Part shown: positions 6,718 through 60,956 of the stretch, piece after piece
Layout of the letters: each line of letters opens with the position of its first letter
Position numbering within the stretch: position 1 is the first letter of the stretch
Source of the DNA: an uncultured Candidatus Saccharibacteria bacterium
GTDB taxonomy: Bacteria > Patescibacteriota > Minisyncoccia > Phycocordibacterales > UBA9973
Reading direction: 5' to 3'
Length of the DNA stretch: 64,000 nt
Assembly (NCBI GenBank): GCA_964496425.1
Contig: CAZBZO010000002.1
Location: forward strand, 2,450 to 66,449
The notes under the pieces: model-generated
The model's input: only the letters and a program-made list of their open reading frames with translations
Databases searched by the model: none
What the model was told of the DNA's origin: nothing
Made by a program: the position numbers and the translations under genes

Positions 6718-6724
6718 AATTAAA

Positions 6725-28921: not shown

Positions 28922-29018
28922 GCAAAACGTAAAATTAGGAGCACAGATATTTGCGTGGTCGCAAATTCTTCCTGCTCGGGCCGTCGCCCTGCGCAAGTCT
29001 CCTAATTTTACATTTTGC
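28922..29018 (+). ncRNA. large structured intergenic element (20-bp inverted repeat enclosing two nested hairpins) between greA and lysS
   Basis: gcaaaacgtaaaattaggag (28922-28941) pairs with ctcctaattttacattttgc (28999-29018) with 1 mismatch; inner hairpins atttgcg-tggt-cgcaaat and gggc-cgtc-gccc. Confidence 0.35.
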
Positions 29019-36675: not shown

Positions 36676-36867
36676 CAAAACGTAGAAAGCAGACAAACTG
36701 CTTTGTCTGCGAGCGTTTTGTGAAGCCACAGTCATGCTGCTTGCAGTAGACGAGGCGGGGTCGGCAAGTACTTAGTCCGCGCAATCACTTGTGATGAGCA
36801 GACTTAGTAACTTGTGATCACATAAAATTTTTATGCAAAGCATATCAATTAACTAACAATTCTAAAA

Positions 36868-45004: not shown

Positions 45005-46540
45005 CTAAATTCCCCGCATGACTTCGATTTTGGCACCAAGAGTATTTAAGCGCCGAGCTAAATCAGCATAGCCACGGGTAATAGAATGCACATTGCGAAG
45101 CGTTGATACGCCTTCAGCTCCGAGCATGGCGATCAAGATAGAAGCTGATGGCCGGAGTGCGGGCGGGCAGATGATTTGGGCGCCACGAAGTTTGGTGCTG
45201 CCGGTAACGAGTGCTCGATGTTGATCAAGAAGTTTTACATCTGCACCTAAACGATTGAGTTCGGTAAAATAAATGGCTCGGTTTTCCCATGACCAATCAT
45301 GAATGAGGGTAGTGCCGGTAGCAATAGCAGAAATAGGCACAAAAAACGGCAGACTATCGTTTTGAAGTCCGGGAAAGGGTTGGGTGTGGAGCTTATCATG
45401 CAGTGCGTGCAATTTCGAAGGCGCAATAGTGATGTCGACAAGCTTCGTTTTGCCGTTTTTTGAAAGATACGGTGCACTTTGTGTGTACGACTGACCCATG
45501 CGAGAGAGTTTTTCAAGTTCAAGCTCGAGAAAATCAATCGGCACTCTTTTTATCGTGAGTGTCGAATGAGTCAGGATACCAGCTGCCAGGAAAAACATAC
45601 TTTCAATCGGATCTTCGCTATTGTAGTGTTCAACAGTTTGGTTTATGTCTGCGATACCGTGCACAATAAGTGTTGTCGTGCCGATACCTTCAATGACAAC
45701 GCCCATCTTTTCGAGTAAGAAACAGACATCTTGAACTTGATAGTTTGGCGGAGCAAACTTGATCGTTGTGGTACCAGGAATACGCGCAGCAGCCGCAATC
45801 ATACATATGGCTCCTGTGTCACTTGATTCGTAGAGAATGATCGTTCGATCTTTTTTGAGATTTTTTGGACGAGTAATGTGGTAGCCGTCCTCTTTGGTAG
45901 TGATTTTCACACCGAGCGTTTCCAGACCGTAGCGATTTGAAGAAATAGTACGCTCTCCCATTTTGCATCCACCAGCATGCGGAAAAACAAATTTATCTGC
46001 GTAGTGAATAAGACTACCAAGAAAGGTGGCACTTCTGGTTTTGGTAACTGCATCTCGATCGATATGATCAAATGTCATTTTTTTACCTGGTATGATTTCT
46101 ACGGTGTCTGCTGAAAGCCACCGTACCTCAACACCGAGACTTTTCATGATAGCAATGTAACGATACACTTCATCAATCTCTGGAATGCCATGGAGGATTG
46201 TTTTGCCGCGGTTGACTAATGCCGCACAGAACATATTGATTGCTCCATTTTTTGAAGTATTGGTGGTGATTGAGCCATGGAGCTTGCGGCCGCCGTAGAT
46301 TTTGAAATCAAGCGATTCTGACAAGCCGACAAGCTTGCGCTCCAGTACTTCACCGATCTTTGTGAGCTGTTCTAGGGTCAGATTTTGACCGCCTCTTTCC
46401 ATACGGGCGACCGCGCTTTGGGAGGTACCTAAGGCTTTGGCGAAATCGCTTTGAGTCATGGATTTTTCTTCGCGGAGTTTCTTTATTCGATCCCCAATTT
46501 TCTCGGAGTCGCTTTTCTGGGCTGTTTTTGTTGATGCCAT
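45005..46540 (-). CDS. murA: fusion protein: N-terminal XRE-family HTH domain + UDP-N-acetylglucosamine 1-carboxyvinyltransferase (MurA)
   Basis: HTH_3 segment (LREEKSMTQSDFAKALGTSQSAVARMERG) followed by complete MurA (KLHGSITTNTSKNGAINMF..., active-site GGCKMGERTISS, C-terminal ITRGYADLARRLNTLGAKIEVMRG). Confidence 0.8.
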   Translation of the reverse strand: MASTKTAQKSDSEKIGDRIKKLREEKSMTQSDFAKALGTSQSAVARMERGGQNLTLEQLTKIGEVLERKLVGLSESLDFKIYGGRKLHGSITTNTSKNGAINMFCAALVNRGKTILHGIPEIDEVYRYIAIMKSLGVEVRWLSADTVEIIPGKKMTFDHIDRDAVTKTRSATFLGSLIHYADKFVFPHAGGCKMGERTISSNRYGLETLGVKITTKEDGYHITRPKNLKKDRTIILYESSDTGAICMIAAAARIPGTTTIKFAPPNYQVQDVCFLLEKMGVVIEGIGTTTLIVHGIADINQTVEHYNSEDPIESMFFLAAGILTHSTLTIKRVPIDFLELELEKLSRMGQSYTQSAPYLSKNGKTKLVDITIAPSKLHALHDKLHTQPFPGLQNDSLPFFVPISAIATGTTLIHDWSWENRAIYFTELNRLGADVKLLDQHRALVTGSTKLRGAQIICPPALRPSASILIAMLGAEGVSTLRNVHSITRGYADLARRLNTLGAKIEVMRGI

Positions 46541-46547
46541 ATTGTGG

Positions 46548-46571
46548 AAGTATATCATATATGATATACTT
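46548..46571. promoter_or_regulatory. 24-bp perfect palindrome (aagtatatcatatatgatatactt) in murA/murB divergent intergenic region; candidate operator
   Basis: perfect dyad symmetry; contains TATGAT/TATACT -10-like hexamers in both orientations; 8 bp from HTH-MurA start codon. Confidence 0.5.
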
Positions 46572-46578
46572 GGCAAGT

Positions 46579-47607
46579 ATGATAGATATGCATCACAACG
46601 TCGCACTTGCTCGGTATTCAACGTTTCGAATGGGTAGTACGGCCGCATATTTTGCCAGTGTCTCGTCTTTGCCTGAAATAGAAGAGTGTCTTTCTTTTGC
46701 AGATGCTAATAATCTTCCCGTCATTGTGTTAGGCGGGGGATCCAATACAATATTTGCCTCAGTAGAGCCGCTCAATGCTTTCGTAATAAAAATAGATAGT
46801 AAGGGCAAAAAAATTATTTCTACAAATGAGAACAGTACGCTGGTGGAGATCGGAGCCGGGGAAAATTGGGACGATGTGGTGGCATGGAGCGTAGAAAATA
46901 ATCTCTCGGGAATTGAAATGCTCTCTGCCATACCTGGTACCTCTGGAGCTACCCCCATACAAAATGTTGGCGCATACGGTGGCGAGATCAAAAATGTCCT
47001 CGTATCACTTCGGGCCTACGATAGACATTCTCGTAGCGTTGTCACGCTTTCAAACACCGACTGTGGGTTTGGGTATCGCGATAGTATTTTTAAAAAAGAT
47101 GCTCGTGACCGTTATATTATTCTTAGTATTACTTTGCGACTATCTCCCCATGCACCCGAGGCTCCAGAGTACCCAGGTGTGAAGAAGTATTTTGATGAGA
47201 AGGGAATCGTTTCGCCCACTCTTTTGCAAATCCGTGAAGCTATTGTCGCCATCCGAGCCCATAAGCTGCCAGATCCCCGGGATATAGCATCGGTGGGTTC
47301 TTTTTTTAAGAACCCGTTTATAGAGACCCAAAAAGCGCTTACGCTCAAAACGAAGTATCCAACACTCGCTGTTTTCCCAGTAAGTGAAACTCAGGCGAAG
47401 ATAGGTGCGGGATCACTGCTTGATACGCTCGGACTTCGAGGAAAAGTATTTGGCAATTTGTCACTGTATGCCGGCAATGCATTAGTGATTGTAAACAATG
47501 GTCAGACGCGACCAGAAGAGCTTTTAGAACTCAAGGAGTACATTATTTCTGAAGTAGAAAAAAAATTCGGTATTACACTTGAACCTGAACCAGTGTTTGT
47601 GACTTGA
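46579..47607 (+). CDS. murB: UDP-N-acetylenolpyruvoylglucosamine reductase MurB
   Basis: FAD-binding PCMH domain (ARYSTFRMGSTAAYF...VLGGGSN), C-terminal MurB domain. Confidence 0.85.
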   Translation: MIDMHHNVALARYSTFRMGSTAAYFASVSSLPEIEECLSFADANNLPVIVLGGGSNTIFASVEPLNAFVIKIDSKGKKIISTNENSTLVEIGAGENWDDVVAWSVENNLSGIEMLSAIPGTSGATPIQNVGAYGGEIKNVLVSLRAYDRHSRSVVTLSNTDCGFGYRDSIFKKDARDRYIILSITLRLSPHAPEAPEYPGVKKYFDEKGIVSPTLLQIREAIVAIRAHKLPDPRDIASVGSFFKNPFIETQKALTLKTKYPTLAVFPVSETQAKIGAGSLLDTLGLRGKVFGNLSLYAGNALVIVNNGQTRPEELLELKEYIISEVEKKFGITLEPEPVFVT

Positions 47608-47612
47608 TCATT

Positions 47613-47631
47613 GTGCGCGATAGAGGATTCG
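47613..47631. repeat. 19-bp exact copy of tRNA-Val 3' end (att-like island boundary)
   Basis: gtgcgcgatagaggattcg identical to 53045-53063 (3' acceptor/T-arm part of minus-strand tRNA-Val); 6 nt after murB stop. Confidence 0.8.
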
Positions 47632-47787
47632 GTCACAGATAATTTTCTGCTGAAAATTTCCGCGAGTCTCCGACGACACGATCCTCTGATCGCCCGCCTC
47701 GCGCCGCCGCGCTTTGGCTTTCTCATCCCTTTCGCATCGCAATGATGCTCCACTCGAATAGTTCCCAACTATTCTCGTGGATCATTG

Positions 47788-48008
47788 TGCACCTTAGGAA
47801 TAAAATTACGAACCCTCCATATCTGGCAAATTTCCCAAACGGTGCTGCTATATCTACTGATTCTGGAAATAGTGCGCTTGGTACTGATCCAGAATTTTGG
47901 CAGAAAGTAAGGAATGACATAGTCACTCTCAGTGAGATTATAAAGGATAGTGGGAAAGAAGACAATGAGGAGGAATTGTCATTTCTAGCACGTTATCCTG
48001 GGCAATGA
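47788..48008. repeat. ~210-bp direct repeat copy 1 flanking defence cassette (contains 71-nt 100% identical core 47895-47965; encodes small ORF)
   Basis: aligns with 51344-51556; small + strand ORF 47742..48008 and minus ORF 47723..47965 both have paralogs in copy 2. Confidence 0.8.
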
Positions 48009-48093
48009 TTCTTTTTTTTGATTATTCTCATTCAAAAGTATTGAATTTAATAAATAGCTTTATCTGCAAGAGTAAAAATGCTAAATTGCATAT

Positions 48094-49779
48094 ATGGCAA
48101 ATATCCATAACCTGAAAATCAAAAACTTTAAGGGGATCAAGGAACTGGATCATACTTTTGGTCCAGCTAACTTGATTTGCCTGGTGGGTCGCGGGGATTC
48201 TGGAAAAACAACTATTCTCGAAGCAATTGAACGTGCATTATACCCGAACTGGAATCCATCTATAAGTGATAATGATTTTTATAACTGTGACATTTCTTTG
48301 CCGCTCGAGATAGAGGTAACACTCAAGGGGATTGCCGATAAGCTATTGAGCGATAATAAATATGGACTACATATTCGTGGTCTTCATGCGGATGGAATGA
48401 CTATTTGTGATGAAATTCAAGATGGGCAAGAAAAACTTCTTACAATACTGTTTAAAGTTGAAAAAGATCTGGAACCTAAATGGTTTGTAACAAGTCATCG
48501 CCCACATCAGGAGGACATGAAAATTGACACGGGAGATCGCTCTACTTTTAATGTTTTTTTGCTATCTGATTATCTGGATAAACATTTTTCATGGAGTAAA
48601 GGAACACCATTATTCGCTTTACTTAAACAGGACGGAAATATAGCAGAAAGTTCATTGTTACTAGATGCTGTTCGAGATTTAAAGATAGGGATCGATAGAG
48701 TAGGATTTCCTCATCTAGACACAGTTATTGATAGGGTTAAGAGTTCGACACTAAAATTTGGTGTCAATATCAATAATACTAAAACTAGCATTGATATAAA
48801 GGATCTTGCCATAAAGGATAGTAAGGTAATTCTTCATGATGACTTGGTTCCTTTAAAACTTAAGGGAAAAGGTTCAAAAAGACTTATTTCTGTTGCAATC
48901 CAAACGGAATTAGCAAAAGACGGGATATTATTACTTGACGAAATAGAACAAGGCCTTGAACCTGATAGAGTTAAGCATCTTGTCAGAACTCTTTGCTGTA
49001 ATACCAACGAACAAACATTTGTGACCACTCATTCACAGCAAGTAATTGAAGAACTTGAACCAGAAAATATATTTGTTGTGAATGCCGAAAATGGCATTGT
49101 GACTATCAAGCAAACAAATAGTGCTGAAAGCGATAAATATAAGAGTCTTTTTAGAACATGCTCTGAAGCACTGTATGCAAATCGAGTCATTGTTTGTGAA
49201 GGCAAAACTGAGCTTGGATTTTGCCGGTCCATAGACAAACAAAGAGTCCTATCATCATTACCATCAATGGCCATGAAGGGTGTTGTGTACTCCCTAGGTG
49301 GTGGTGATGGATTTAACAGAAAGGCAAAACAACTGAAAGAAAATCTTGGTAAAGAAGTTTGTGTTTTTTGTGATTCAGATAAAGATGAGGATATTGGTGA
49401 ACCAACAAAAGTTGAATTGAGAGCTTCAGGTATAGATATTTTTGATTGTGAGACACTTAATAATTTAGAACAACAGATTTCAAAAGATCTACCATGGGAA
49501 GGGATCGAGGAGCTTTGCAACTATGTTGTTCAAGATAAAAACATTAAGAAAGAATTTGCTCTTTATTTTAAAGAATTGACTACTTCTAGTTGGAATAACG
49601 CTGATACTCCTGAAAATAGAAAACTCTTTTCCGATGCAGCAAAAAAATATTCTTGGTTTAAAAGAATTGATCACGGTGAGAAACTAGGGGACATCTGTCT
49701 TAAATATAAGAGTCAATTAGCAGAAGACTCACGGCTAAAAGTGATTATCTCCGGAATAAATTCCTGGATAGAAATATGA
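48094..49779 (+). CDS. OLD-family ABC-type ATPase with C-terminal TOPRIM nuclease domain (class 2 OLD; GajA-like)
   Basis: Walker A GRGDSGKTT, ABC signature/Walker B LLLDEIEQGLEP...H, TTHSQQ; TOPRIM glutamates VIVCEGKTE and DxD CDSDKD. Confidence 0.75.
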   Translation: MANIHNLKIKNFKGIKELDHTFGPANLICLVGRGDSGKTTILEAIERALYPNWNPSISDNDFYNCDISLPLEIEVTLKGIADKLLSDNKYGLHIRGLHADGMTICDEIQDGQEKLLTILFKVEKDLEPKWFVTSHRPHQEDMKIDTGDRSTFNVFLLSDYLDKHFSWSKGTPLFALLKQDGNIAESSLLLDAVRDLKIGIDRVGFPHLDTVIDRVKSSTLKFGVNINNTKTSIDIKDLAIKDSKVILHDDLVPLKLKGKGSKRLISVAIQTELAKDGILLLDEIEQGLEPDRVKHLVRTLCCNTNEQTFVTTHSQQVIEELEPENIFVVNAENGIVTIKQTNSAESDKYKSLFRTCSEALYANRVIVCEGKTELGFCRSIDKQRVLSSLPSMAMKGVVYSLGGGDGFNRKAKQLKENLGKEVCVFCDSDKDEDIGEPTKVELRASGIDIFDCETLNNLEQQISKDLPWEGIEELCNYVVQDKNIKKEFALYFKELTTSSWNNADTPENRKLFSDAAKKYSWFKRIDHGEKLGDICLKYKSQLAEDSRLKVIISGINSWIEI

Positions 49780-51182
49780 GTGAGACATTTGATGTAAGAT
49801 CTTTTGCAACCGCGCGGGATAATGTTTTAATTGCTCCAGCAGGTTTTGGCAAAACCCATTCAATTAGTGAATGTCTTAAGTACACTCATGGTAGACAACT
49901 TATTCTAACGCATACTCAAGCTGGTGTCGCTTCTATTAAAGACAAGCTACAAAAATGTTATATCAGTAAAGACAAATACAGTGTGGAGACCATATCTAGT
50001 TTTGCTAAAAGGTATGTGGTTTCCTTCGATAATTCAACAAGTATTCCAAATGAAACAGATGATAACTTCTATCCTTATTTCATTGAACAGGCAACCAATT
50101 TGTTATCTTCAATCTTAGTACAGGATATAATAAAGCTTTCCTACTCAGGCTTGTTTGTTGATGAATATCAAGACTGTACTATTAAGCAACATAATTTAAT
50201 ATTGATATTGGCCGGAATACTGCCAACCCACGTTTTAGGTGATCCTTTACAAGGAATTTTTGGTTTTGCTGGCGATCTAGTTGATCTAAATGACTCTCCT
50301 CAGATGGGTAGATTCAATACAGTCCATTATTTGAAAGTCCCTCATCGGTGGATCATTGGGGGTAATAAGCAACTTGGAACGGATTTACTACAAATAAGAG
50401 AGAAATTGCAATTAAATCTTGAAATTGAATTAAAGCACTTTCCATCCATAGAATTTAGGCAAGGAGGTTATTTAGATCATTATAATTTCATAATGGAAAC
50501 CCTAAAAAACTGTGATAGCGTCTTAGTAATTGATCCTAATTCAATGAGATTAAGTAACAGGGAAAAGTTTGTTGTTACTTTCAAGTATATTCCCTTACTA
50601 ATTGAAGCATTTGATGGGAAGGACTTTTATTCTTCCGCGATCCATTTTGATAATAAAAACAATCTTCCTGCTAGTGAGGTTTTACACAAGTTTATTGAAG
50701 GTAAGTTTTCTAATTTAGATAATTGGTACGATAAGACTAATAGGAGATTCAGAAAAAAAAGAAACCCTGTTGAAGAGAAGGAGTTGTTCGTGATAAAACA
50801 ACTTATGAGTAGGTTGGAATTAAGTTACTCACTAATGGATTTGAAAGAGGTCATATTTAGAATAAGAAATTTAAAGGGTGTTAACTGCGCGAGAAGGGAT
50901 CTTTTAAGTTCTCTGAGTAGATCAATGGAAGATGCTCATTATTCAAGAATCTCAGTACTGGAAGCAATGAGAAACAATCGAAATGGGATAAGGAGATTAG
51001 GTAGAAAAATGTATGGCAAATGTGTAGGTACAACTCTTCTAACTAAAGGGTTGGAGTTTGAAACCGTAATTATATTAGATGCAGATAAATTTAATGACCC
51101 CAAGAATTTTTATGTTGCAATATCAAGATGTATTAAGAGGCTTATTATACTTGCCAGTAATAGTAAATTAAATCCGTATTAA
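49776..51182 (+). CDS. short UvrD-like superfamily-1 helicase (GajB-like)
   Basis: Walker A APAGFGKTH, motif II VDEYQD, C-terminal motif VI-like TLLTKGLEFETVIILDAD; 4-bp overlap with upstream ATPase. Confidence 0.7.
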   Translation: MSETFDVRSFATARDNVLIAPAGFGKTHSISECLKYTHGRQLILTHTQAGVASIKDKLQKCYISKDKYSVETISSFAKRYVVSFDNSTSIPNETDDNFYPYFIEQATNLLSSILVQDIIKLSYSGLFVDEYQDCTIKQHNLILILAGILPTHVLGDPLQGIFGFAGDLVDLNDSPQMGRFNTVHYLKVPHRWIIGGNKQLGTDLLQIREKLQLNLEIELKHFPSIEFRQGGYLDHYNFIMETLKNCDSVLVIDPNSMRLSNREKFVVTFKYIPLLIEAFDGKDFYSSAIHFDNKNNLPASEVLHKFIEGKFSNLDNWYDKTNRRFRKKRNPVEEKELFVIKQLMSRLELSYSLMDLKEVIFRIRNLKGVNCARRDLLSSLSRSMEDAHYSRISVLEAMRNNRNGIRRLGRKMYGKCVGTTLLTKGLEFETVIILDADKFNDPKNFYVAISRCIKRLIILASNSKLNPY

Positions 51183-51343
51183 CCAAGAATAGATTCTTTG
51201 TGTTATTATTACTTTTTTTGAATTGCTGAGCTTGTTGAAGTTGATTGTGAGAGGTTCAAATTTTGTTTAGGTAACCTTCAATTACAAGAACATTTGACAA
51301 GATTCTGTAAAGGAGGGAGCATTTGCTATTTATGACAATTGGG

Positions 51344-51556
51344 TGCACCTTAGGAAAAAAATTATGCCCTCCATATCTGGCAAATTTCCCAAACGGTGCG
51401 GCTATACCTACTGATCCTGGAAATAACATCCTAGCTACAGATCCAGCATTTTGGCAGAAAGTAAGGAATGACATAGTCACTCTCAGTGAGATTATAAAGG
51501 ATAGTGGGAAAGAAGACAAACCGGATGAATTGTCGTTTCTAGCAAAACTTCCCTAG
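51344..51556. repeat. ~210-bp direct repeat copy 2 flanking defence cassette (71-nt identical core 51450-51520)
   Basis: see copy 1; small ORF 51323..51556 paralogous to 47742..48008. Confidence 0.8.
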
Positions 51557-51591
51557 TTATCAAGCTAGGTACTTATTAGTATGCTACTTGT

Positions 51592-51828
51592 ATGGATACC
51601 TCTATACCAAATGATTTAAGAAAGTGGAGGAAGGCTAAGGGATTTCGACAGCTTGATGTAGCATGTAAACTAGGATTTTCTAGCACTGATCGAATTTCGA
51701 AGTGGGAGAAGGGAATTTCCTATCCTCATCTGATTAATCTCTTTAAGCTCTGCGCGATATATGAGGTAATGCCGCAGGAGTTGTATGGAGAAGTCTTGAG
51801 ACAAGTTTATCAATCACAAAATAAATAA
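51592..51828 (+). CDS. XRE-family helix-turn-helix transcriptional regulator
   Basis: 78 aa; LRKWRKAKGFRQLDVACKLGFSSTDRISKWEKG HTH_3 pattern. Confidence 0.7.
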   Translation: MDTSIPNDLRKWRKAKGFRQLDVACKLGFSSTDRISKWEKGISYPHLINLFKLCAIYEVMPQELYGEVLRQVYQSQNK

Positions 51829-51830
51829 TT

Positions 51831-52748
51831 TTAGTAAGTCTTATTGAGCAAGGGGTCAAAGACCATTTTGTAATTAGAATCTTTTACAAAATCATGCTCA
51901 TCGAATTCAAGAATAGTTTGTTTCAGGTTAAAATTATACGCTTCTGTTTTGGATTGAATAAAAAAACTTACTCCCTCAGCATTGCCAAAAAAATGCCTTT
52001 GTGGATTCGTTACATTTTCATGAAGTAGTTTTGCATGGAATATTTCACTATTAAAGTAATGAAGTATTCTCTTGTGAACTTCCCCAAAATAATCTTTACC
52101 GGAATCAGTGCCGTTAAAATATTCTCCGTGTACCAATCTATGCCTTAATCCAGATCGAGAATTTCCTTTTATGCCAAATAATTCGATTTTAAGCTCTTTC
52201 CCTAGTATTAGTTCAATAAAGTTAAAGTCCTTTTTGTCATTTCTTTTGGCAAGAGCTTCAATGGCTGAAAACATGAGCAGCAACTTAGAAGAATACCCAG
52301 TAGCATTGGTTGCATCATTCCAATAAAAGTAGAATTCATCGGGTATCTGGAGGTTCCTATGAAGTACATCCAATGCCTTCAGATGGTCTTCCATGAACAT
52401 TAGTCCAACAGGCGACCTATCTTTCACAATTCTTATAAATGCTGTATCAGAATCTTCCCTATGAATAAGAAAAGATTCATTCACAAAATCAATATAGCAT
52501 TGAGAGATAAGGGCAATCTTGGGAATAATCTGAAGTAGTTTTAATCTAAATTCCTTGAAAGCTTCATGGAAGTCAGCTGCTTCAAATGTTGCTTCAGCCA
52601 GCCAGGCATCTCCTTTCCATCCATATGCATGATTGAAATCCCATTGTGAAAGGGTTATGTCATCAATCGCAAATGATGCTGGATTATCCTTTCCGATAAT
52701 TGCATTGTGAGCAAGAGTTGTAATGCGATGCTGAATTTTATACTTCAT
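51831..52748 (-). CDS. hypothetical protein, island-encoded (possible Rx4H/HEPN-like motif RHRLVH)
   Basis: 305 aa ORF, AT-rich codon usage like neighbouring Gabija genes; no confident domain. Confidence 0.4.
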   Translation of the reverse strand: MKYKIQHRITTLAHNAIIGKDNPASFAIDDITLSQWDFNHAYGWKGDAWLAEATFEAADFHEAFKEFRLKLLQIIPKIALISQCYIDFVNESFLIHREDSDTAFIRIVKDRSPVGLMFMEDHLKALDVLHRNLQIPDEFYFYWNDATNATGYSSKLLLMFSAIEALAKRNDKKDFNFIELILGKELKIELFGIKGNSRSGLRHRLVHGEYFNGTDSGKDYFGEVHKRILHYFNSEIFHAKLLHENVTNPQRHFFGNAEGVSFFIQSKTEAYNFNLKQTILEFDEHDFVKDSNYKMVFDPLLNKTY

Positions 52749-52942
52749 AAATCTTTTTGCTTCTCCATAAATGTATCAACAAGTAATTTAGCGAGATACA
52801 TCAATTGAATATTTTCTTCTTGTTCCTTAGCTGATAAGCGTTCAAAGGCTTGGACTCCCGCGTGCTTTATAGCTGACTCCTTCGCATACAGATAACCTTC
52901 TAAATCCATTCTTGCATTATTCATCAGCGTACTATAGCGCAT
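52745..52942 (-). CDS. hypothetical small protein, translationally coupled upstream of 305-aa ORF
   Basis: 65 aa; stop overlaps start of downstream ORF (ATGA). Confidence 0.35.
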   Translation of the reverse strand: MRYSTLMNNARMDLEGYLYAKESAIKHAGVQAFERLSAKEQEENIQLMYLAKLLVDTFMEKQKDL

Positions 52943-53045
52943 AGTAGGAGAAAGTTCGAATCCCTTTAACCTCCACCATGTTTTTGGTGTTTCTGCAAAA
53001 TAAAAAATCCTTAGGAAGTAAGGATTTTTGAGTAATACCTTAAGG

Positions 53046-53118
53046 TGCGCGATAGAGGATTCGAACCTCTGGCCTACCCCACGTCAAGGGGTCGCTCTAC
53101 CAACTGAGCTAACCGCGC
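53046..53118 (-). tRNA. tRNA-Val (anticodon GAC)
   Basis: Reverse complement folds: acceptor gcgcggt/atcgcgc, D-loop agctcagttggtagagc, anticodon loop ttGACgt, T-arm agagg-ttcgaat-cctct. Confidence 0.85.
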
Positions 53119-53207
53119 GTCACCCCACAATACTAAAAAATAGCCAATGCTGCAATAATAGCTTTATTGATGGGTTGATTGTTGTTATAATGGGGTAGCT
53201 CGGCACA

Positions 53208-56200
53208 ATGCTTTTTTTTAATCAAAAAAAAATAAAAGACCAAGAAAACAATCAAATTCAGGATGTTTTTTTTGATTCAGCCAAAAGCATCATCAATCTT
53301 AAAAAAAAGACGCCATTTATTGAATTTCACTTTGAAAATTCAATTATTCTATTTAAAAAATACGAACGAAAATTGTTTGTCACCCTTGCAATATTTTTTG
53401 GAGTTGCAATTTTTAGTATGTTTTATGTCACCACGGCGAATGTTGCTGTTTTTTATTCAAGTAAATGTCTTGGGGGGTGGGAACATCCAGAAAACGCCGA
53501 AGGTAAGCCATCGCTTTCTTCTGGAGCTCATGCAGAAGATTTTACCAAAAATAATTCTGCATATGTGAAAGAACATTCTGCCTCTATGTACTGCGGCGAA
53601 TTTGACGGCGTAGTTCCCGTGGATGCTATACCTAAAACTTTCAAGCTTTCTCTGGCCTGGTCTGTTGATAATGGAACCGTTCGTCATCGCGAACCAAAAC
53701 CGTTTGATCTTTCCACTGAGTTTGAACCAGATACGAGTACCGCGGTAACTGATGAGAATAAAAATGATGATATTTTAAACGAAGGTGGTGAACAGGAAGA
53801 AATTATAACGGATGAGTCTAGAGAGAGTACTGACATCCTACAAGTAGAAGAGCGTGATAGTTCTCCTGAAACCGATCCTCAAGATGAGGAAGCATCCAGT
53901 GAGGATATTTCCTCAGAACAGAGTGATGAATCTTCAGACCAGCAAACATTCTTTGAGCGATTATTTACTAAAAAAGTATTTGCCCAAGAAGAAAATTCTG
54001 AAGGTACGAGCTCTGAGAGTTCTTCAAATAACAATGACTCAACATCTACCGAAAATGGATCTGAGAGCTCGGACTCAAGCTCGGATAATAAGAATGGTTC
54101 CGAACCATCAGGCGATGCTCCACAAGATTCTGAAAGCATAACAGAAAACGAGCCTTCAAACGTTCCGACTCAAGGATCGGAACAGAATAGAGATACTTCC
54201 GTACGGGATCAGAGAGAAATAACAGAGAAGAAAAATCGAATAAAAAAGGAAACAGGAAGCATCCCCGAAACGGAGCCAGTGGTAGACGGGTTTATGGAAG
54301 TTTCTTATACATTAGATGGAGCAACCTGGAACAGTCTGGGACAAGTCAGTATGAATAATTGGCAAGACGTATCTTTCGATATCCCACTTACCGCCTGGGC
54401 GGACCTTTCAACATTTCAAATCGGTTTTCAAACCCTAGCCAATCTTGATGAGTCACCGGCAATATATATAGACAGCGTGAGCGTCGAAGTGCAATATGAA
54501 ACAGAACAAGAAAACTTCAATCTTGAAGTTCCTACTGTAAAAATAATAGATTCGTCTGAAAATATCATTTTCAGCGACATGACAACATTCTCTTCCCAAG
54601 ACGAACCGTTCTTCGATGTAGTTAATCCAAAATATAGTGAGAGTGATTTACTTTTACTTATTAATGAAGGCAAAATTGAGATTGTAGAAGATACAGATAA
54701 GATGATAGATCTTTGGGAAATGCCCAGTATGCTCGAAGATCCGGTAAAAAATAGTATTGAATCAATCAAAAGTATTGTTAATCCAACAGTGTCGCATACA
54801 CCTTCTCAGATAGAGGAAGAAACTTTCTCTTCTCAAGATGAAGAGCAAGGTTCGGCGGGGCCACGCCGGAAGTCTACTCTTGAAATCATCGAAGGTTCTC
54901 CTCCTGACGAGCAAGCGCAAGAAGAGACCACAAACGGAGCGATTCAATTAAAAGAAAATACTTCCGAAGAATCTCCTGCAATTGAAAGTGATGGTGAGAA
55001 TATAGATCAATCAGAAGAAGGAGATAATGAGATTATATCAATGCTCCCCAAACAGAGCCTTGATCGTTATTGGGGAAATAGAATAAAATCTGAAAAAACA
55101 AACTCAATAATAAGTAATCAGAGTGGAGGTACTTCGAAAGCTTTTTTATTTGGGCCATATATTGCTCATGCGCAAGAAGAAGAAGCTCTGCATCTGAATG
55201 ATATTGTTGCGGAAGTGTTTGATTCTCAAGGTAAAACAGATATACAGACAAGTATAACAACCGTGATTATCGGTGGAGTACAAAAGAGAAGAGTCAATAT
55301 AGAGCGACCACAGCAATTCCGACCAGGAACGTATACCTTGCGGATAACATTGAGAGGAGAAAATGCAAATATTATTTCAGAGCAGAATTTTACGTGGGGA
55401 GTACTTGCGATCAATATTGACCGCTCAATAGAATTGCCTGGGGAAGATGCCTATATTCAAATGGCCGTGCTCAACGATCTTGGGCATACGCTGTGTAACG
55501 CTGATCTTTCACTTGAAATCAAAAGTCCTAGTGGTATCGTTACTCATTTCAATACAAGTGACGCTACTATTGTGTCTGCACAAGAATGTGGCGTAGATAA
55601 TATTATCCCAGTTCCAGACTATTTCAGTCACTACACTGTTTCAAACGAGATTGGTGTTTACTCAATGACACTAACTGCCGAGACGTTAAACGGCACAAAA
55701 ACGATTACTGATTCATTTGAAACAAAGGCATCTCCACTATTTGATGTTGTTCGTACCGGACCTACCAGAATAAATCCAACTGCTGGATATCCTGTGACTA
55801 TTGAAATTACCCCAAAGGCAGATTGGAATGGTGTTATAACCGAAACCGTACCGATTGATTTTACGATTTCACCGCCGATGAGAAGTATTGCATATGACAG
55901 TATTGAAATAGTAAACAATAAAAAAAATATTACGTGGAATATATCCTTGATTAAGGGTGAGACAACAACAATCGGCTATTACTTTGATGCACCGGACGAA
56001 AGTCCTCAATTTTATTTGTTGGGTCCCCTTGATTTTAGCCTACTTTCATTTAAAGGTTTGAAAACTACTTCTGTTTTTCAAGAAGCACGTGAGTGGCAAA
56101 TTGCAAGTGACGTTGCGACTATCGTACTTTTAACGACTGGTACGAGCTGGAGTGTGCCTGTAGACTTTGATCCAGCAAACAATACGATCGAAGGTATTGG

Positions 56201-59200
56201 CGGCGGCGGCGGCGGTGGTGGTGGAACGAATGGAACAGGAGCACAGGGTCGTGGTGGTGGCGGAGCTGGTGGTGGAGGTGAATATAGAAAAATTTCGAAT
56301 TTCAATCCAGGCGGTGCTGGATCAATATCATATGTAATTGGACAAGGTGGAACTTTCGGTGCAGCAAATACAAGTGGTAGTAATGCTACTGATACGACAT
56401 GGAATAGTACATCACTTGTTGCAAAAGGTGGACTTTTAGGAACGAATACTGGAGCAGGCACTGGTGGTACAGGTGGTGCTGGTGGTACTGGTGGTACTGG
56501 AGCTGCAGGAAATAATAATGGTGGTAAAGGTGGCCGTGGAGGAAACCGTTCTGTGACATTAGGCGGTGGTGGCGGTGGTGGAGGAGGTGCCGGTGGGACA
56601 AGTGCAGTTGGGGGCGCAGGAACAAACGGTACTGCTGGTAGTACTGGGGGTGCAGGAGGTGCGGGAGGTAATGCTTCTGGTGGAACAGCAGGAACGAGTA
56701 ATGGTGGGGCTGGAGGAGCTGGTACTGTTTGGACCGACAACTCAGGTGGCGCCAATAATGGTATACAAGGTGGTGCTGGTGGTGGTGGCGGAGGAGGACT
56801 TGCCAGTGCCGGTGCCGGTGGTGCATCAGGTACTGCTGGTAATTATGGAGCTGGCGGTGGCGGTGGTGCTGGTGGAGGTTCAGGTTCTTCAGCTGGAAGT
56901 GCTGGCAAGGCAGGAGCAAATGGTATTATTGCTATTACCTATACTCCGTTTACTATTTCAGGGACTGCAAATGGTAATGATACCGCAACTGTAAGAGTTG
57001 CTATTAATGGAACTTTACAAGCTCAAACAGGCACTATTTCTGCTAGTGCTTGGTCTATAAGTGGAGTCACTTTACCAACGTCTGGGGATATTATTACTGT
57101 TTGGGTAGATAACGTAAGTGACGCAAATGAATCAAGTGCGGTAACCAAGTGGAGTTCTGGTAGTGTTTCTAGTATGGTGCTTAACACCAATTTTTTAACA
57201 ATTGGAAGTAATCAAAATACAAGTTTGACGGTCACTAACCTTGGTCAATATGATTCTGACAATGATGAGGACATTATGCATACTGCGAATAGTGGGGCTT
57301 TCTTAGTGCAAGCATCTGGCAATACATATACAGGAGAAACCATCACAATAGCGTCAAGTAATACACTAACAGTTAGTACCGGTGAATCACTTACAACTGA
57401 AAAGATGATTATAAGTGGAACAGTAACTTCGTCAGGTACTGCCACCTATACATTTACTGCAACATCTGGGACACTACTTACGAGAACTGGAACATTCACT
57501 CAAAGTAATTCAACGGTTAATGTTACATCAGCATCAGGAACCCCTACATTCCTCTCTGCTGCAGTCACATTTCATATTCTTACTATTAATGCAGCTGCAA
57601 CGGTCATAAATGCTGGCGCAGTGATTACTATTGATGACACAAGTGGAGCTTTGCTCTACATTCAATCTGGAGTTCTCAATGACGATGGTTTGGGAATATC
57701 AACTTCGGCTTCTACCGCTAATACATTGCAAATAGATTCTGGTGGTACGATGTGTTTAGGTGGATCAAGTTCAAATACATCTGCAACTTGCAACACTGGC
57801 ACCGTATCAACGACGACAAGGTCTATGCCAGCATTTAGTACGTATACATTAAATGCTTCTTCGACTATTATTTATTTATCAGACGCAGACACAACTATTT
57901 CATCTACACCAACCTATGGTAATTTGAAATTACAGCCAAAATTCGTAACTACTGCACGTACCTATACCTTGAATGGCGCTATGACCATTAATGGTAATTT
58001 TGATATAAATCCCGAAGAATCAGGTGCGGGTACTCCTGCGCTTACAGTTAATGCCGGAGGTACCATTACAGTTGCGACAACAAAAACAATAACTTTGACA
58101 CGATCAAATAGTTCAAGTAGCTCTCTTGATCTAAGGCCCTCATCAACTGATTATAATCTTTCAACAGGGTTTTTGGTTGTGGCCACTGGTGGCACGCTTG
58201 ACGCAGCCAGTGCTTCGTCAACGATTACGCTTACAGGTACTTCTGGAACGCTATTTACAAAAGCTGGCACATTTACCCAAGGCACTTCTGATGTGGTTGT
58301 CACCAGTGCTTCAGGGACACCAACATTATTATCTGCCGGAACTACATTTCACAGGTTGACGATTAATAGCGCTGCAACTGTCATAAATGCAGGCGCAGTG
58401 ATTACTATGTCGAGTGCTGATGCCAATAACAGACTCTATATTCAAACTGGTGTGCTCAACGATGGAGGTAGTCAAATTGTTGGCACGGCAAATGGGACAA
58501 TGCTCATAGATGGAGGGGCAATGCTCTGTATTAATGGCACGGTGGGTGGGACCAATGCGACATGTAATAGCGGAGCAGCTGTTAATGGTGGATCAGGTGG
58601 ATTCCCAACCAACTATACCACTGGCAATATTACTCTTGCTGTTACTTCTACGGTTGCCTATCTTGGAAATGGTGGTTTGAGCATTTCATCCACGCCTACG
58701 TACGGGAATTTAAAATTGATCCCGGTACTAGCTTCAACAAATAAAAGTTATACATTTTCTGGTGTTACAACGATAAATGGAGATTTTACGATCCTACCTT
58801 CAGGTGCCGCACTGGAATTAAAAGTAAAGTTAGGCGGTGATCTAACGGTGGCTGCAACTAAAACGACAACAATTTCAAATAGCGGAGTTCCAACCTCTTT
58901 GTTGCAGCTGCGTCCAGTGAGTACAGATTATAATCTGACCACTGGCTTTTTGAGTGTCAGTAGTGGCTCCGAGCTCGATGCAACTCTCAGTGCATCGACT
59001 ATTACAATTACTGGGACATCAGGTACGCTGTATACAAATGCAGGGACATTTAGTAACGGAAGTACAGAAGTAAACTTTTCAGGTAATGGTAGTGCGACGA
59101 TCAATTCCGGTAGTATTACATTTAATAATTTTAGAAGTTCTGGTACGGGCACAAAAAGCCTCGGTGTTTCAGGAATTTCTGTTGCGAATAATATATTTAT

Positions 59201-60956
59201 TACCGCAGGTACGTTTAATCCAAACGGAGTAACTATGACAGGTTCAGGAATCAGTAACGTACTAACGGCGACTAATAGTACTTTATTGGTGGATAAAAAT
59301 ACCACTACAGCATTTTCGGATAATTATTCAAGTATGGAAACAGTAACACTTGGTACCGGTTCGACGGTTGACTACATGGGAAGTGGTTCGCAGACAATTA
59401 GTAGTTCGTTCGGTTATGAAAATATAAAAACCTCAACAGGAGGTACCAAGACTTTAAATGGTACTACTGTTGCAAATGGATCAATTACTATTACTACATC
59501 AACACTCACCACTGCAGGTAATACACTGACTGCTCTGAGCATTTCAGTTGATGGAACAAGTACATTTACTGCTAGTTCGACATCTACGGTCACCATTACT
59601 GGCACGACAGGACCAGTTTTTACGCTTACCTCAGGAGGCGCATTTAATGCAAATTCTTCATCTTTTGTTTTTAACGGCAATGCGACCATGACGCTTCTTT
59701 CTGGTACATTCACCGGCGGTAATGCGTTTAACGACGTCACATTCTCTCCAACGGTTTCGGTAGGTGGTAATAAAACCTACACTCCAAGTTCTACGGCAGT
59801 AGCGATAAATGGCAATTTTACTATTAATCCTTCCGCATCGGTTATCACAACAACTTTGATAGTAAATTTAGCCGCAAATCTTACTGTTGCAACAAATAAA
59901 ACAATAACAATCCAAGGTACCGGTACAGGATTAGGTAGAATTGATTTACAGTCATTTGCCTTGAGCGCGGGTTCGATGTCAATTGCGTCAACCGGCACGG
60001 TCCTTGGTAATACCGGGAGTATTACATTAGCTGGCAGTTGGACGAATGGTGGTACTTTTACTGAAGGAACATCGACAGTGACTTTAAATAGTGGCACAAC
60101 AGCAGTCGTGACAGGTACGACAACATTTTACAATCTTACTATTACTCATACTGCAGCCAAAGAAGTTGATTTCGCAACTTCGGGTACTCCGATTTTTCAC
60201 GTGACGAATGCTTTTGTTGTAACGGGAAGTTCGGGCAATCTTATTAAATTATATTCAGATTCCGCCGGTACTCAGTGGGAATTTCATCCGACAGGCACGG
60301 CCTCGGTTGATTACGCTGATGTGAAAGATGGTGGTTGTCAGTCGGGCGCTATTACTATTACGCCCACAAACTCGATCAACAGCGGCAACAATGATTCGTG
60401 TTGGTTTTTTGCAAGTGCATTATCGTTTGATATTGATACAGCATTAACTGATGCCGAGTCTGCTTCGCCGTACTCAGTAGCGTTGGGTACACTTACCACT
60501 TCGGATACCAGGGTCTCAGGCAGTACTGATAGCATCAATTATATTTGGCTTGATATTAGCAGCAGTGCGCCTGGTGGGGCGGTTATAACGGTCCTCAATG
60601 CCAATGGATCAAACGGCCTCGTTTCTACCTCAAAACCAACAAGTACCATAAATAGCACGGATGGTTCAGTAGCGGACGGAACGGAAAATTATGGGTTGTG
60701 CGTTGTCTCAGTATCTACAAGTTCTGGTACCTTAGATGATGAAGGGGGATATGATGGAGACACGTGCGCGGGTAACAGCGAAACTAATAATGTTCAGGAG
60801 CTTAGTTCGTCCGGTGAGATACTACTTGATACCAATGGAGCCGCGATTACTGCCGGAAGGGCACAAATTGCCGTAAATGCATCCATAAGTTCCGTAACTC
60901 CTGCACATGATGATTATACCGATACGCTTATATTTTTAGTAACAGGAACGTTTTAG
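53208..60956 (+). CDS. giant (2582 aa) repeat-rich cell-surface protein with N-terminal TM, acidic/Ser-rich region, Gly-rich low-complexity block, Thr/Ser/Gly-rich ~270-aa tandem repeats and a conserved ~190-aa C-terminal domain
   Basis: single uninterrupted ORF; repeats e.g. TSASGTPTFLSAAVTFHILTINAAATVINAGAVIT / TSASGTPTLLSAGTTFHRLTINSAATVINAGAVIT; C-terminal domain homologous to C-terminus of ORF 61121..62260. Confidence 0.8.
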   Translation: MLFFNQKKIKDQENNQIQDVFFDSAKSIINLKKKTPFIEFHFENSIILFKKYERKLFVTLAIFFGVAIFSMFYVTTANVAVFYSSKCLGGWEHPENAEGKPSLSSGAHAEDFTKNNSAYVKEHSASMYCGEFDGVVPVDAIPKTFKLSLAWSVDNGTVRHREPKPFDLSTEFEPDTSTAVTDENKNDDILNEGGEQEEIITDESRESTDILQVEERDSSPETDPQDEEASSEDISSEQSDESSDQQTFFERLFTKKVFAQEENSEGTSSESSSNNNDSTSTENGSESSDSSSDNKNGSEPSGDAPQDSESITENEPSNVPTQGSEQNRDTSVRDQREITEKKNRIKKETGSIPETEPVVDGFMEVSYTLDGATWNSLGQVSMNNWQDVSFDIPLTAWADLSTFQIGFQTLANLDESPAIYIDSVSVEVQYETEQENFNLEVPTVKIIDSSENIIFSDMTTFSSQDEPFFDVVNPKYSESDLLLLINEGKIEIVEDTDKMIDLWEMPSMLEDPVKNSIESIKSIVNPTVSHTPSQIEEETFSSQDEEQGSAGPRRKSTLEIIEGSPPDEQAQEETTNGAIQLKENTSEESPAIESDGENIDQSEEGDNEIISMLPKQSLDRYWGNRIKSEKTNSIISNQSGGTSKAFLFGPYIAHAQEEEALHLNDIVAEVFDSQGKTDIQTSITTVIIGGVQKRRVNIERPQQFRPGTYTLRITLRGENANIISEQNFTWGVLAINIDRSIELPGEDAYIQMAVLNDLGHTLCNADLSLEIKSPSGIVTHFNTSDATIVSAQECGVDNIIPVPDYFSHYTVSNEIGVYSMTLTAETLNGTKTITDSFETKASPLFDVVRTGPTRINPTAGYPVTIEITPKADWNGVITETVPIDFTISPPMRSIAYDSIEIVNNKKNITWNISLIKGETTTIGYYFDAPDESPQFYLLGPLDFSLLSFKGLKTTSVFQEAREWQIASDVATIVLLTTGTSWSVPVDFDPANNTIEGIGGGGGGGGGTNGTGAQGRGGGGAGGGGEYRKISNFNPGGAGSISYVIGQGGTFGAANTSGSNATDTTWNSTSLVAKGGLLGTNTGAGTGGTGGAGGTGGTGAAGNNNGGKGGRGGNRSVTLGGGGGGGGGAGGTSAVGGAGTNGTAGSTGGAGGAGGNASGGTAGTSNGGAGGAGTVWTDNSGGANNGIQGGAGGGGGGGLASAGAGGASGTAGNYGAGGGGGAGGGSGSSAGSAGKAGANGIIAITYTPFTISGTANGNDTATVRVAINGTLQAQTGTISASAWSISGVTLPTSGDIITVWVDNVSDANESSAVTKWSSGSVSSMVLNTNFLTIGSNQNTSLTVTNLGQYDSDNDEDIMHTANSGAFLVQASGNTYTGETITIASSNTLTVSTGESLTTEKMIISGTVTSSGTATYTFTATSGTLLTRTGTFTQSNSTVNVTSASGTPTFLSAAVTFHILTINAAATVINAGAVITIDDTSGALLYIQSGVLNDDGLGISTSASTANTLQIDSGGTMCLGGSSSNTSATCNTGTVSTTTRSMPAFSTYTLNASSTIIYLSDADTTISSTPTYGNLKLQPKFVTTARTYTLNGAMTINGNFDINPEESGAGTPALTVNAGGTITVATTKTITLTRSNSSSSSLDLRPSSTDYNLSTGFLVVATGGTLDAASASSTITLTGTSGTLFTKAGTFTQGTSDVVVTSASGTPTLLSAGTTFHRLTINSAATVINAGAVITMSSADANNRLYIQTGVLNDGGSQIVGTANGTMLIDGGAMLCINGTVGGTNATCNSGAAVNGGSGGFPTNYTTGNITLAVTSTVAYLGNGGLSISSTPTYGNLKLIPVLASTNKSYTFSGVTTINGDFTILPSGAALELKVKLGGDLTVAATKTTTISNSGVPTSLLQLRPVSTDYNLTTGFLSVSSGSELDATLSASTITITGTSGTLYTNAGTFSNGSTEVNFSGNGSATINSGSITFNNFRSSGTGTKSLGVSGISVANNIFITAGTFNPNGVTMTGSGISNVLTATNSTLLVDKNTTTAFSDNYSSMETVTLGTGSTVDYMGSGSQTISSSFGYENIKTSTGGTKTLNGTTVANGSITITTSTLTTAGNTLTALSISVDGTSTFTASSTSTVTITGTTGPVFTLTSGGAFNANSSSFVFNGNATMTLLSGTFTGGNAFNDVTFSPTVSVGGNKTYTPSSTAVAINGNFTINPSASVITTTLIVNLAANLTVATNKTITIQGTGTGLGRIDLQSFALSAGSMSIASTGTVLGNTGSITLAGSWTNGGTFTEGTSTVTLNSGTTAVVTGTTTFYNLTITHTAAKEVDFATSGTPIFHVTNAFVVTGSSGNLIKLYSDSAGTQWEFHPTGTASVDYADVKDGGCQSGAITITPTNSINSGNNDSCWFFASALSFDIDTALTDAESASPYSVALGTLTTSDTRVSGSTDSINYIWLDISSSAPGGAVITVLNANGSNGLVSTSKPTSTINSTDGSVADGTENYGLCVVSVSTSSGTLDDEGGYDGDTCAGNSETNNVQELSSSGEILLDTNGAAITAGRAQIAVNASISSVTPAHDDYTDTLIFLVTGTF
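56200..56920 (+). repeat. Gly-codon (GGN) low-complexity tract inside giant ORF
   Basis: runs of ggcggcggcggtggtggt...; antisense proline-rich ORFs here are artefacts. Confidence 0.85.

Follow-up and report, generated by a model that had tools for sequence, protein, structure and literature searches.

Organization of the tRNA-Val locus

We analyzed the tRNA-Val locus of an uncultured Candidatus Saccharibacteria bacterium within a 64-kb stretch of contig CAZBZO010000002.1 (64,000 nucleotides (nt); hereafter the window). Here, a block of genes that includes a predicted defense system is enclosed by two copies of a 19-nt sequence, GTGCGCGATAGAGGATTCG. One copy is held by the tRNA gene and the other belongs to a short structured segment beside murB, which we call element X; the genes between X and the tRNA are referred to as the cargo. 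The features that frame the locus are the following.

46588-47607, plus strand: murB (UDP-N-acetylmuramate dehydrogenase), the left housekeeping flank, with Pfam FAD_binding_4 and MurB_C domains and an identical 339-amino-acid (aa) protein in the databases (P0121).
47613-47631, minus strand: left 19-mer copy, a copy of the tRNA-Val 3' end (C56-C74); on the tRNA-sense strand it serves as the 3' arm of X.
47613-47786, minus strand: element X, made up of the tRNA-end copy and a 155-nt structured segment.
47630-47706: conserved core of X (hairpins H1 and P2), with a lineage-specific 27-nt insert; the remainder of X is a distal hairpin region ending ...GTGGATCATT.
47787-53044 (equivalently 47791-53048): inserted cargo, 5258 nt, between X and the end of tRNA-Val.
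53044-53118, minus strand: intact tRNA-Val(GAC) (ARAGORN; Rfam tRNA, 68.5 bits), which holds the right 19-mer copy.

The 19-mer is present in exactly two copies in the window (47613-47631 and 53045-53063), and no further copy was found there at up to two mismatches, with 0 expected from 100 shuffles. On the tRNA strand it runs from C56 in the T-loop through the 3' strands of the T-stem and acceptor to A73 and C74. The left copy adjoins murB, whose stop codon TGA (47605-47607) is followed by the 5-nt spacer TCATT and then by the copy itself. An independent contig (L001) spans window positions 47539-53563 at 99.95% identity and other contigs match parts of the region at 100%; because independent contigs show the same order, the arrangement is real and not an assembly artifact.

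A first-pass annotation of this DNA had already noticed the exact duplication of the tRNA 3' end, the defense pair, the HTH regulator and the AT-richer composition of the enclosed genes, all of which our analysis bears out; windowed G+C is 0.33-0.37 inside the region and about 0.44-0.47 to its left. Its placement of the left copy beside murB also stands, with the correction that its distance of 6 nt is reached only by inclusive counting. The same annotation overlooked a direct repeat of about 204 nt, a promoter-like end segment (PE) and the distinct element at 47613-47786, and it interpreted the 19-bp pair as the attL and attR sites of a single 5.5-kb island.

Cargo-free relatives retain the repeat around element X

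When one genome per species was scanned for MurB, the best match was 53% identical and murB-tRNA-Val synteny was not conserved, which made the scan useless as an empty-site test. In a large protein collection we found one MurB at 70% identity (P0122), which is encoded on a 1640-nt contig, L042. The order on this contig is murB-TAG-AGTT-GTGCGCAATAGAGGATTCG-155 nt-GTGCGCGATAGAGGATTCGAACCTCTGGCCT. Here GTGCGCAATAGAGGATTCG is the 19-mer with a single mismatch, and GTGCGCGATAGAGGATTCGAACCTCTGGCCT closes the contig, whose final 31 nt are identical to the 3' part of tRNA-Val in the window. The 155 nt of X in L042 are 93.5% identical to window 47632-47786 without indels, whereas murB and the gene upstream of it share 68-73% DNA identity between the two.

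In L042, X directly abuts tRNA-Val and the cargo is absent. In the window, the final bases of X, ...CTCGTGGATCATT, are followed instead by GTGCACCTTAGG..., the start of the first cargo gene, so that the difference between the two is 47787-53044, or 5258 nt. Written as a synthetic sequence, the cargo-free junction is ...CTCGTGGATCATT|GTGCGCGATAGAGGATTCGAACC. Only GTGC is repeated at the two cargo boundaries, and because it stands at both junctions the cargo limits may equally be drawn at 47787-53044 or 47791-53048. Since L042 carries both 19-mer copies around X and no cargo, the repeat brackets X and not the genes.

A second relative, L015 (MurB 51% identical), has a tRNA-Val(GAC), a terminator hairpin, an X-like element and tRNA-end copies, again with no cargo; the cargo is thus absent in both relatives whose tRNA-Val 3' flank is readable. 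The empty site of an integrase-borne island would carry a single copy of the repeat, but both cargo-free relatives still carry tRNA-end copies. These results show that X and its copy of the tRNA end are older than the cargo and under constraint, and that the cargo is lineage-specific. We consider it probable that the locus consists of two nested things, an old conserved X and a later, 5258-bp, low-G+C cargo placed between the tRNA-Val 3' terminus and X.

In L015 (16300-16360, minus strand) the X-like element is followed by two tandem units of [H1 3' arm + tRNA-Val 3' end], which look like repeated events at one junction.

Structure and distribution of element X

X has a folding z-score of -4.3. 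On the minus strand of the window its core reads GCC-GGA-[stem-GACG-stem]-GA-GGC-GG-GGUCGCGGAAAUUUUC-AGCA-GAAAAUUAUCUGUGACC. Metagenome contigs from groundwater, sediments and mats contain 98 exact matches to a 24-mer from the core (47635-47658), and no match to X was found in viral contigs or phage genomes. Among 46 distinct core sequences, 94.2% of pair cells are standard (34-53% in slid controls) and there are 59 double-sided changes, compared with 14.7 in shuffles. In H1, two pairs are G·U in most sequences (45/46 and 34/46) and A-U in the rest. Because a G·U pair would become A·C on the other strand, the relevant single strand is probably that of the neighboring tRNA.

For 24 of the 74 distinct instances that could be assessed, a tRNA or tmRNA gene on the same strand ends within 150 nt upstream. 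Hosts of X-type elements include tRNA-Arg, Val, Glu, Ser, Leu, Lys and Phe genes as well as tmRNA, and the element is often the last item in a tRNA cluster. In L097, the core (6853-6928) lies just 3' of a tmRNA gene (6389-6793) on the same strand, which extends the association beyond tRNAs. Ten loci (eight distinct) have a direct copy of the left flank, 15-29 nt long and 89-151 nt away; the window, at 5432 nt, is the outlier. In eight of the ten, the copied flank is the 3' end of a tRNA (tRNA-Val(UAC), Glu, Ser, Leu or Phe) and always starts at C56, and in the remaining two it is DNA adjoining the tRNA end. At many loci this copy pairs with an inverted copy just past the core, forming a closing stem, P0, that corresponds to the acceptor and T-stem strand (L011, L054, L087, L125). 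The core also occurs at the tips of long locus-specific hairpins.

A covariance model of the core, R1, recovered X in the window on the minus strand (47.4 bits, E 1.7e-8). It found a second copy at 28942-29004 (minus strand; 33.7 bits, E 3e-5), where a ~20-bp hairpin specific to that locus lies between two plus-strand genes and carries the core at its tip. A third copy, weak and diverged, is at 36716-36820 (plus strand; 18.1 bits, E 0.16); it follows tRNA-Glu(CUC) on the same strand at a distance of about 40 nt and lacks a tRNA-end copy. Elsewhere, R1 detected copies behind tRNA-Trp in L011, and some contigs carry two or three. Logan contigs that run from murB stop at window 47663, 30 nt into the core. 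At first sight this break suggested a population variant, but entry of the contig into the multi-copy core, with k = 31, accounts for it better. No recurrent protein family was found beside the 98 core loci.

Several core-bearing contigs showed further arrangements. In L060 (900-1170, minus strand), L058, L078, L109 and L135, a second 5S-like copy lies beside an intact 5S rRNA gene and is broken by the core together with GC-rich hairpin insertions. Group I introns are present in the 23S rRNA genes of two core-bearing contigs (L058, 3021-3213; L123, 294-495), which fits the known richness of rRNA insertions in the candidate phyla radiation (CPR). At a tRNA-Glu locus shared by two related contigs (L085, 6126-6215; L131, 110-183), one copy of H1 has become a perfect palindrome with both G·U pairs changed to Watson-Crick pairs, which suggests arm-to-arm conversion.

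Candidate identities of element X

We compared X with known RNAs and mobile elements. A scan of window 47000-53600 and eight element-bearing loci against Rfam 15 returned only tRNA matches at E up to 1. With no ARAGORN or Rfam match, X was rejected as a tRNA-like gene, a piece of tmRNA or a known ribozyme or riboswitch. It was also rejected as a guide RNA of TnpB, IscB, a CRISPR-associated transposon (CAST) or IS110, since no such protein lies near the 98 loci, and as a phage end, given the lack of viral or phage matches. Searches of the available literature library by sequence and by topic retrieved no description of X.

Known tRNA-like structures include the tRNA-like domain of tmRNA, viral tRNA-like structures and mascRNA-type minihelices. 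X resembles them in having a closing stem built from the 3' strand of a tRNA acceptor and T-stem with its complement, which gives it an end like that of a minihelix, at the tRNA 3' terminus or close to it. It differs in carrying a ~70-nt two-hairpin module in place of the T-loop. Like rRNA intervening sequences and the rRNA insertions of CPR bacteria (PMC11270868), X is a compact stem-loop grafted on helices of stable RNAs, sporadically distributed, with long perfect closing stems that might be substrates of RNase III. Unlike them, its core lies mostly after tRNA genes and is closed by tRNA-end copies. A survey of CPR rRNA insertions reported short, uncharacterized insertions lacking open reading frames (ORFs) in 16S and 23S rRNA and none of at least 100 bp in 5S rRNA, and it does not describe the sequence of X (PMC11270868).

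X is most likely either a structured RNA that runs in the same direction as the tRNA or a miniature element that folds as a single strand. We favor the structured RNA, the ends of which would resemble a tRNA minihelix and might be substrates of the enzymes that process tRNA ends.

Modular organization of the cargo

The cargo is foreign in composition as well as lineage-specific: its G+C content is 0.353 (47787-53043), compared with 0.436 in the rest of the window. It contains the following features.

47787-48008, plus strand: R-left, a 73-aa gene whose GTG start lies exactly at the left cargo boundary; P0241 is 100% identical.
48094-49779, plus strand: GajA, ATPase and OLD-type TOPRIM nuclease (PADLOC PDLC04168, 1e-156, residues 1-559 of 561).
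49776-51182, plus strand: GajB, UvrD-like helicase (PADLOC PDLC04173, 4e-119, full length; Pfam UvrD-helicase), overlapping GajA by 4 nt.
51289-51342, plus strand: PE, the 54-nt promoter-like conserved right end of the GajA-GajB module, TTGACA...AAGGAGGGAG...ATG, which reads into R-right.
51332-51556, plus strand: R-right, a 74-aa paralogue of R-left with an ATG start (P0242).
51592-51828, plus strand: XRE-type HTH regulator, 78 aa (Pfam HTH_3, 1.2e-8).
51831-52748, minus strand: 305-aa protein with an N-terminal beta domain and a putative HEPN-like helical domain.
52745-52942, minus strand: 65-aa ORF that shares 4 nt with the 305-aa gene and is called together with it on several contigs of the same population.
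53003-53029: hairpin AAAAATCCTTA-GGAAG-TAAGGATTTTT, terminator-like in both directions as read from the sequence, between tRNA-Val and the 65-aa gene.

A direct repeat of about 204 nt flanks the GajA-GajB pair (47787-47990 and 51343-51544; 90% identical, with one 2-nt indel) and includes an identical 72-nt block (51448-51519 and 47894-47965). The repeat corresponds to the R genes, and the homology between R-left and R-right starts exactly at GTGCACCTTAGG, the left cargo boundary. Two tandem modules lacking integrases, each led by a small R gene, make up the cargo: [R-GajA-GajB-PE] and [R-HTH-305-aa gene-65-aa gene]. This modular build, with boundaries of its own, does not agree with a single decayed element, as which the first-pass annotation suggested it might be read.

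The R family is tiny, with about 10 clusters in 1.8 billion representatives, and R was not found in viral contigs. A homologue in L046 is 56% identical, and over the C-terminal half its differences from R-right are mostly synonymous; this synonymous bias indicates that R is coding. The view of R as a mere repeat or a noncoding RNA was ruled out in favor of a small protein family with synonymous-biased changes. Structure prediction with AlphaFold2 (AF2) gives a single confident helix.

A cassette on L044, a contig from an unrelated metagenome, has a right end homologous to PE. The order in L044 is [GTGCACC-R (78% identical)-265-aa gene, opposite strand-PE], directly followed by GGTGCGG, the 3' end of another tRNA. 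The 265-aa protein matches the profiles of the PADLOC candidate PDC-M68A and of an HNH effector. Given the ends it has in common with L044, the GajA-GajB module belongs to a type of cassette in which the ends are conserved, the defense cargo varies and a tRNA 3' terminus lies alongside. The joint that a circular form of this cassette would have (...TATGACAATTGG|GTGCACC) already exists within the tandem array, and a circle of the second module would be marked by the junction ...ATACCTTAAG|GTGCACCTTAGG.

As in integron cassettes, these are small recombinase-less modules with variable cargo and conserved ends that stack head to tail, the first ORF begins at the boundary, and promoter-like sequence comes from the preceding end. 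Unlike integron cassettes, they insert at a tRNA 3' terminus, and the island ORFs have no match to IntI or any other recombinase (attC and attI sites were not searched for); the R/PE cassette type is known from two loci only, the window and L044. Scored as a DDE transposon or miniature inverted-repeat transposable element (MITE), the cargo has only weakly inverted ends (ACCTTAGG... and ...CCTTAAGG; ACCTTAAGGT is itself palindromic), as well as GTGC at both junctions, and it contains no transposase. In agreement with the first-pass annotation, no island ORF of at least 65 aa matches an integrase or recombinase family in Pfam, NCBIfam, PHROGs or PADLOC. Noncoding gaps in the cargo are at most 149 nt, which leaves no space for a decayed integrase.

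Predicted functions of the cargo genes and their neighbors

The GajA/GajB pair is a Gabija system by its profile matches and is predicted to be anti-phage. Like known Gabija systems, it consists of adjacent, overlapping genes with full-length profile matches, GajA combining an ATPase with TOPRIM and GajB being a UvrD-like helicase. In Pfam, GajA matches AAA_15/AAA_21, and OLD-like_TOPRIM scores 22.5 bits against a cut-off of 23.2 bits. The system differs from known ones in that GajA is only ~30-33% identical to plasmid homologues, several of which adjoin annotated UvrD-helicase genes, and in its residence on a novel cassette in a Saccharibacteria-type genome.

Beyond its Pfam match, the HTH gene has sub-cut-off matches to a PHROG transcriptional regulator and to an RstR-like NCBIfam family. 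The family of the 305-aa protein has more than 340 members in CPR genomes, which are ~50% identical and carry no Pfam domain. R202, R204, L205, H207, G208 and Y210 are invariant across 38 homologues, which places an R202-x4-H207 version of the HEPN motif Rx4-6H in the protein, and the matches returned by fold searches are HEPN proteins. These results are suggestive of a HEPN-like putative RNase. The Rx4H motif, the HEPN fold matches and the varied contexts of its homologues away from tRNAs led us to reject a cryptic recombinase. The 65-aa ORF has no family match in Pfam, PADLOC, NCBIfam or PHROGs and no functionally known relatives. A search for exact copies of GajA and the 305-aa protein retrieved only short contigs from this population, which break off at the R repeat. 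In strain L004, which is 94% identical, the 65-aa and 305-aa genes likewise adjoin the giant ORF described below.

Homologues of the 305-aa protein in L032 and L035-L038 are solitary genes in variable regions, where their neighbors are GmrSD/HNH, an EcoRI-type methylase, DUF3644, DUF5677 and DUF559, and not tRNAs. The family is a candidate defense-associated family of CPR genomes.

Outside the cargo, a 2582-aa ORF (53208-60956, plus strand) directly follows tRNA-Val and has no Pfam match; around 56200-57100 its G+C content rises to 0.54 with a GC skew of +0.46. In L015, a 1760-aa fibronectin-repeat surface protein is encoded beside murB in place of this ORF. On the other side, MurA (EPSP_synthase; 45005-46648, minus strand) carries an N-terminal XRE-type HTH domain (HTH_3/HTH_31, Pfam), and the same fusion is present in L043, a relative with a 59% identical MurB.

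Proposed history and alternative explanations

In the history that we propose, X (47613-47786), with its ~70-nt two-hairpin core and a stem arm copied from the 3' end of the neighboring tRNA, would normally lie directly 3' of tRNA-Val. The 19-bp duplication would be the closing-stem arm of X and older than the gene cargo. The first arrival may have been the [R-HTH-305-65] module at the tRNA terminus, either through a recombinase supplied in trans that acted on the GGTGC terminus of the tRNA or by homologous replacement via the conserved flanks. The second would have been a circular Gabija cassette that entered by homologous (Campbell-type) recombination between its own R and the resident R. 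A single R x R crossover is expected to leave two chimeric R copies, identical over the 72-nt block and different to either side of it, with PE joined to the second R, and this matches the pattern seen.

Some observations weigh against this history or against the reading of X as an RNA of the tRNA strand. No recombinase gene or circular junction was observed, so the mechanism of entry is one that we infer, and the second module (R-HTH-305 aa-65 aa-hairpin) has the R end of the cassette type and lacks the PE end. There is only one close relative, and its short contig breaks off after 31 nt of the tRNA; that the cargo was inserted here and not lost there is therefore argued from parsimony, composition and the ends of the L044 cassette. 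The GATCATT that occupies the 7 nt before the murB-side 19-mer, including the murB stop, equals the conserved right end of X before the L042 tRNA (window 47606-47631 compared with L042 1603-1628), which may point to gene conversion or a former tandem X. The core is near-identical across very different genomes, and gathering the family through an exact 24-mer inflates this apparent conservation. Evidence from G·U pairs in P2 is mixed between strands, and in the 5S-like copies the core has the opposite orientation relative to the host RNA. Finally, the copies have a sharp edge at the T-loop and a ragged outer edge, as do the att sites of integrases, so that a miniature integrative element stays a serious rival.

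The most familiar explanation is the one adopted in the first-pass annotation: a single ~5.5-kb island inserted by a tRNA-targeting tyrosine integrase, flanked by 19-bp attL and attR sites, with the integrase lost later. An exact T-loop-to-3'-end copy at the distal border and low-G+C DNA with defense cargo are what it predicts, and defense islands with direct repeats at tmRNA and tRNA genes are well documented (PMC12595487). We nevertheless consider it highly improbable. It is contradicted already by L042, which carries both copies around X alone, and a gene-less layout of repeat and core recurs at many tRNAs with a spacing of 89-151 nt; there is no integrase match among the island ORFs and no space for a remnant, and the left cargo boundary is the start of a repeated cassette end. 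What holds of the earlier interpretation is an AT-rich, accessory, integrase-less defense block at the tRNA-Val 3' end; what falls is the repeat pair as its att sites. Islands integrated at tRNAs are also exemplified by the tycheposons of Prochlorococcus. The locus shares with tRNA and tmRNA defense islands, such as those of Pseudomonas with intY downstream of tmRNA (PMC12595487), a compositionally deviant defense cargo directly 3' of the tRNA, a copy of the tRNA 3' end at the far border and tandem modules. Unlike these islands, it has no integrase, its junctions share only GTGC, and the tRNA-end copy is part of the conserved X and is kept at the unoccupied site of a relative. A second integrase-based explanation is tandem accretion, in which X itself would be a miniature non-autonomous element or relic with a T-loop crossover, mobilized by an integrase in trans; the 19-bp copy would be its attR, and the R modules would have come later. 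Cis-mobilizable elements (CIMEs) of this kind are flanked by att sites and lack recombination genes. X is like them in being short, gene-less DNA bracketed by a tRNA-end repeat, with more elements stacked at the same tRNA. The copies always begin at C56, and their other edge is ragged and falls on the tRNA 3' end or past it (19-29 nt), like att identity blocks; elements of this type lie at many tRNA genes and tmRNA, with several copies on some contigs; and the tandem [H1 arm + tRNA end] pair of L015 and the near-identity of the core, read with the caution given above, would also fit. We judge accretion unlikely, though well worth keeping in view. No integrase or recurrent protein lies near the 98 loci, and X at tRNA-Val has been kept across MurB identities of 51-70%, far above the conservation of neighboring genes, as expected for a functional gene and not for a scar. 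The closing stem, moreover, pairs the copy with an inverted copy that reaches into the acceptor part (L011, L054, L087, L125), which an att site does not need. Unlike CIMEs, X has a covarying, strand-asymmetric hairpin core and orthologous retention across deep divergence, and no cognate integrative element was seen.

Two further explanations leave X in place and concern the cargo. It could be ancestral between X and tRNA-Val, and L042 and L015 could each have lost it through GTGC microhomology; the 4-nt repeat at both junctions fits microhomology-mediated loss, and CPR genomes are streamlined. This seems very unlikely to us, because the G+C content of the cargo lies 8 percentage points below that of the remaining window and the left end of the cargo is a cassette terminus that it has in common with L044, from another organism and at another tRNA. 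Two relatives with differing synteny both have X immediately after tRNA-Val, and loss would have had to restore the exact ...GGATCATT|GTGCGCG junction. Alternatively, the region could be a replacement hotspot without any site-specific step, its content exchanged by natural transformation and homologous recombination through two conserved flanks, murB with X and tRNA-Val with the giant ORF. Integrase-less hotspots between core genes are common in bacteria. The lack of a recombinase, the standing of X and the tRNA as the best-conserved local sequences, and the presence of the right-hand module in the 94%-identical strain all speak for such replacement. It leaves unexplained, however, the cassette ends (GTGCACC... 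and PE) found also in L044 at another tRNA in another organism, and a boundary that falls exactly at the tRNA terminus; we therefore regard it as rather improbable.

Compared with these alternatives, insertion of a later cargo between tRNA-Val and an older X agrees best with the structure of the relatives. More tentatively, we suggest that X may represent an undescribed and widespread class of element in CPR/Patescibacteria, defined by a ~70-nt two-hairpin core and a closing stem that combines direct and inverted copies of the adjacent tRNA end to mimic a minihelix. Members of such a class might be processed small RNAs at the ends of tRNA operons or T-loop-targeting mini mobile elements, and the tRNA-X junction could serve as a landing pad for new integrase-less R...PE defense cassettes.

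Discussion

The tRNA-Val locus is a tRNA-associated defense hotspot of a known kind with two unusual ingredients: an apparently undescribed structured element that copies the tRNA end, which explains the 19-mer, and apparently new integrase-less R/PE cassettes. A duplicated tRNA 3' end is usually read as the scar of an integrase island, and here comparison assigns the scar elsewhere. Island callers that use tRNA-fragment repeats would mis-delimit such CPR loci.

The deep conservation, covariation, multicopy occurrence, tRNA/tmRNA/5S association and tRNA-end copies of X point to an unrecognized RNA or mobile-element class in CPR bacteria, a large and little-understood part of the bacterial tree. 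Its tRNA-mimic ends lead to testable predictions of processing by RNase P, RNase Z and RNase III. These results also suggest that episymbionts with tiny genomes and few recognizable mobile elements can take up and stack predicted anti-phage systems (Gabija, HEPN-like, HNH-like) at a tRNA terminus without a recombinase encoded in cis.

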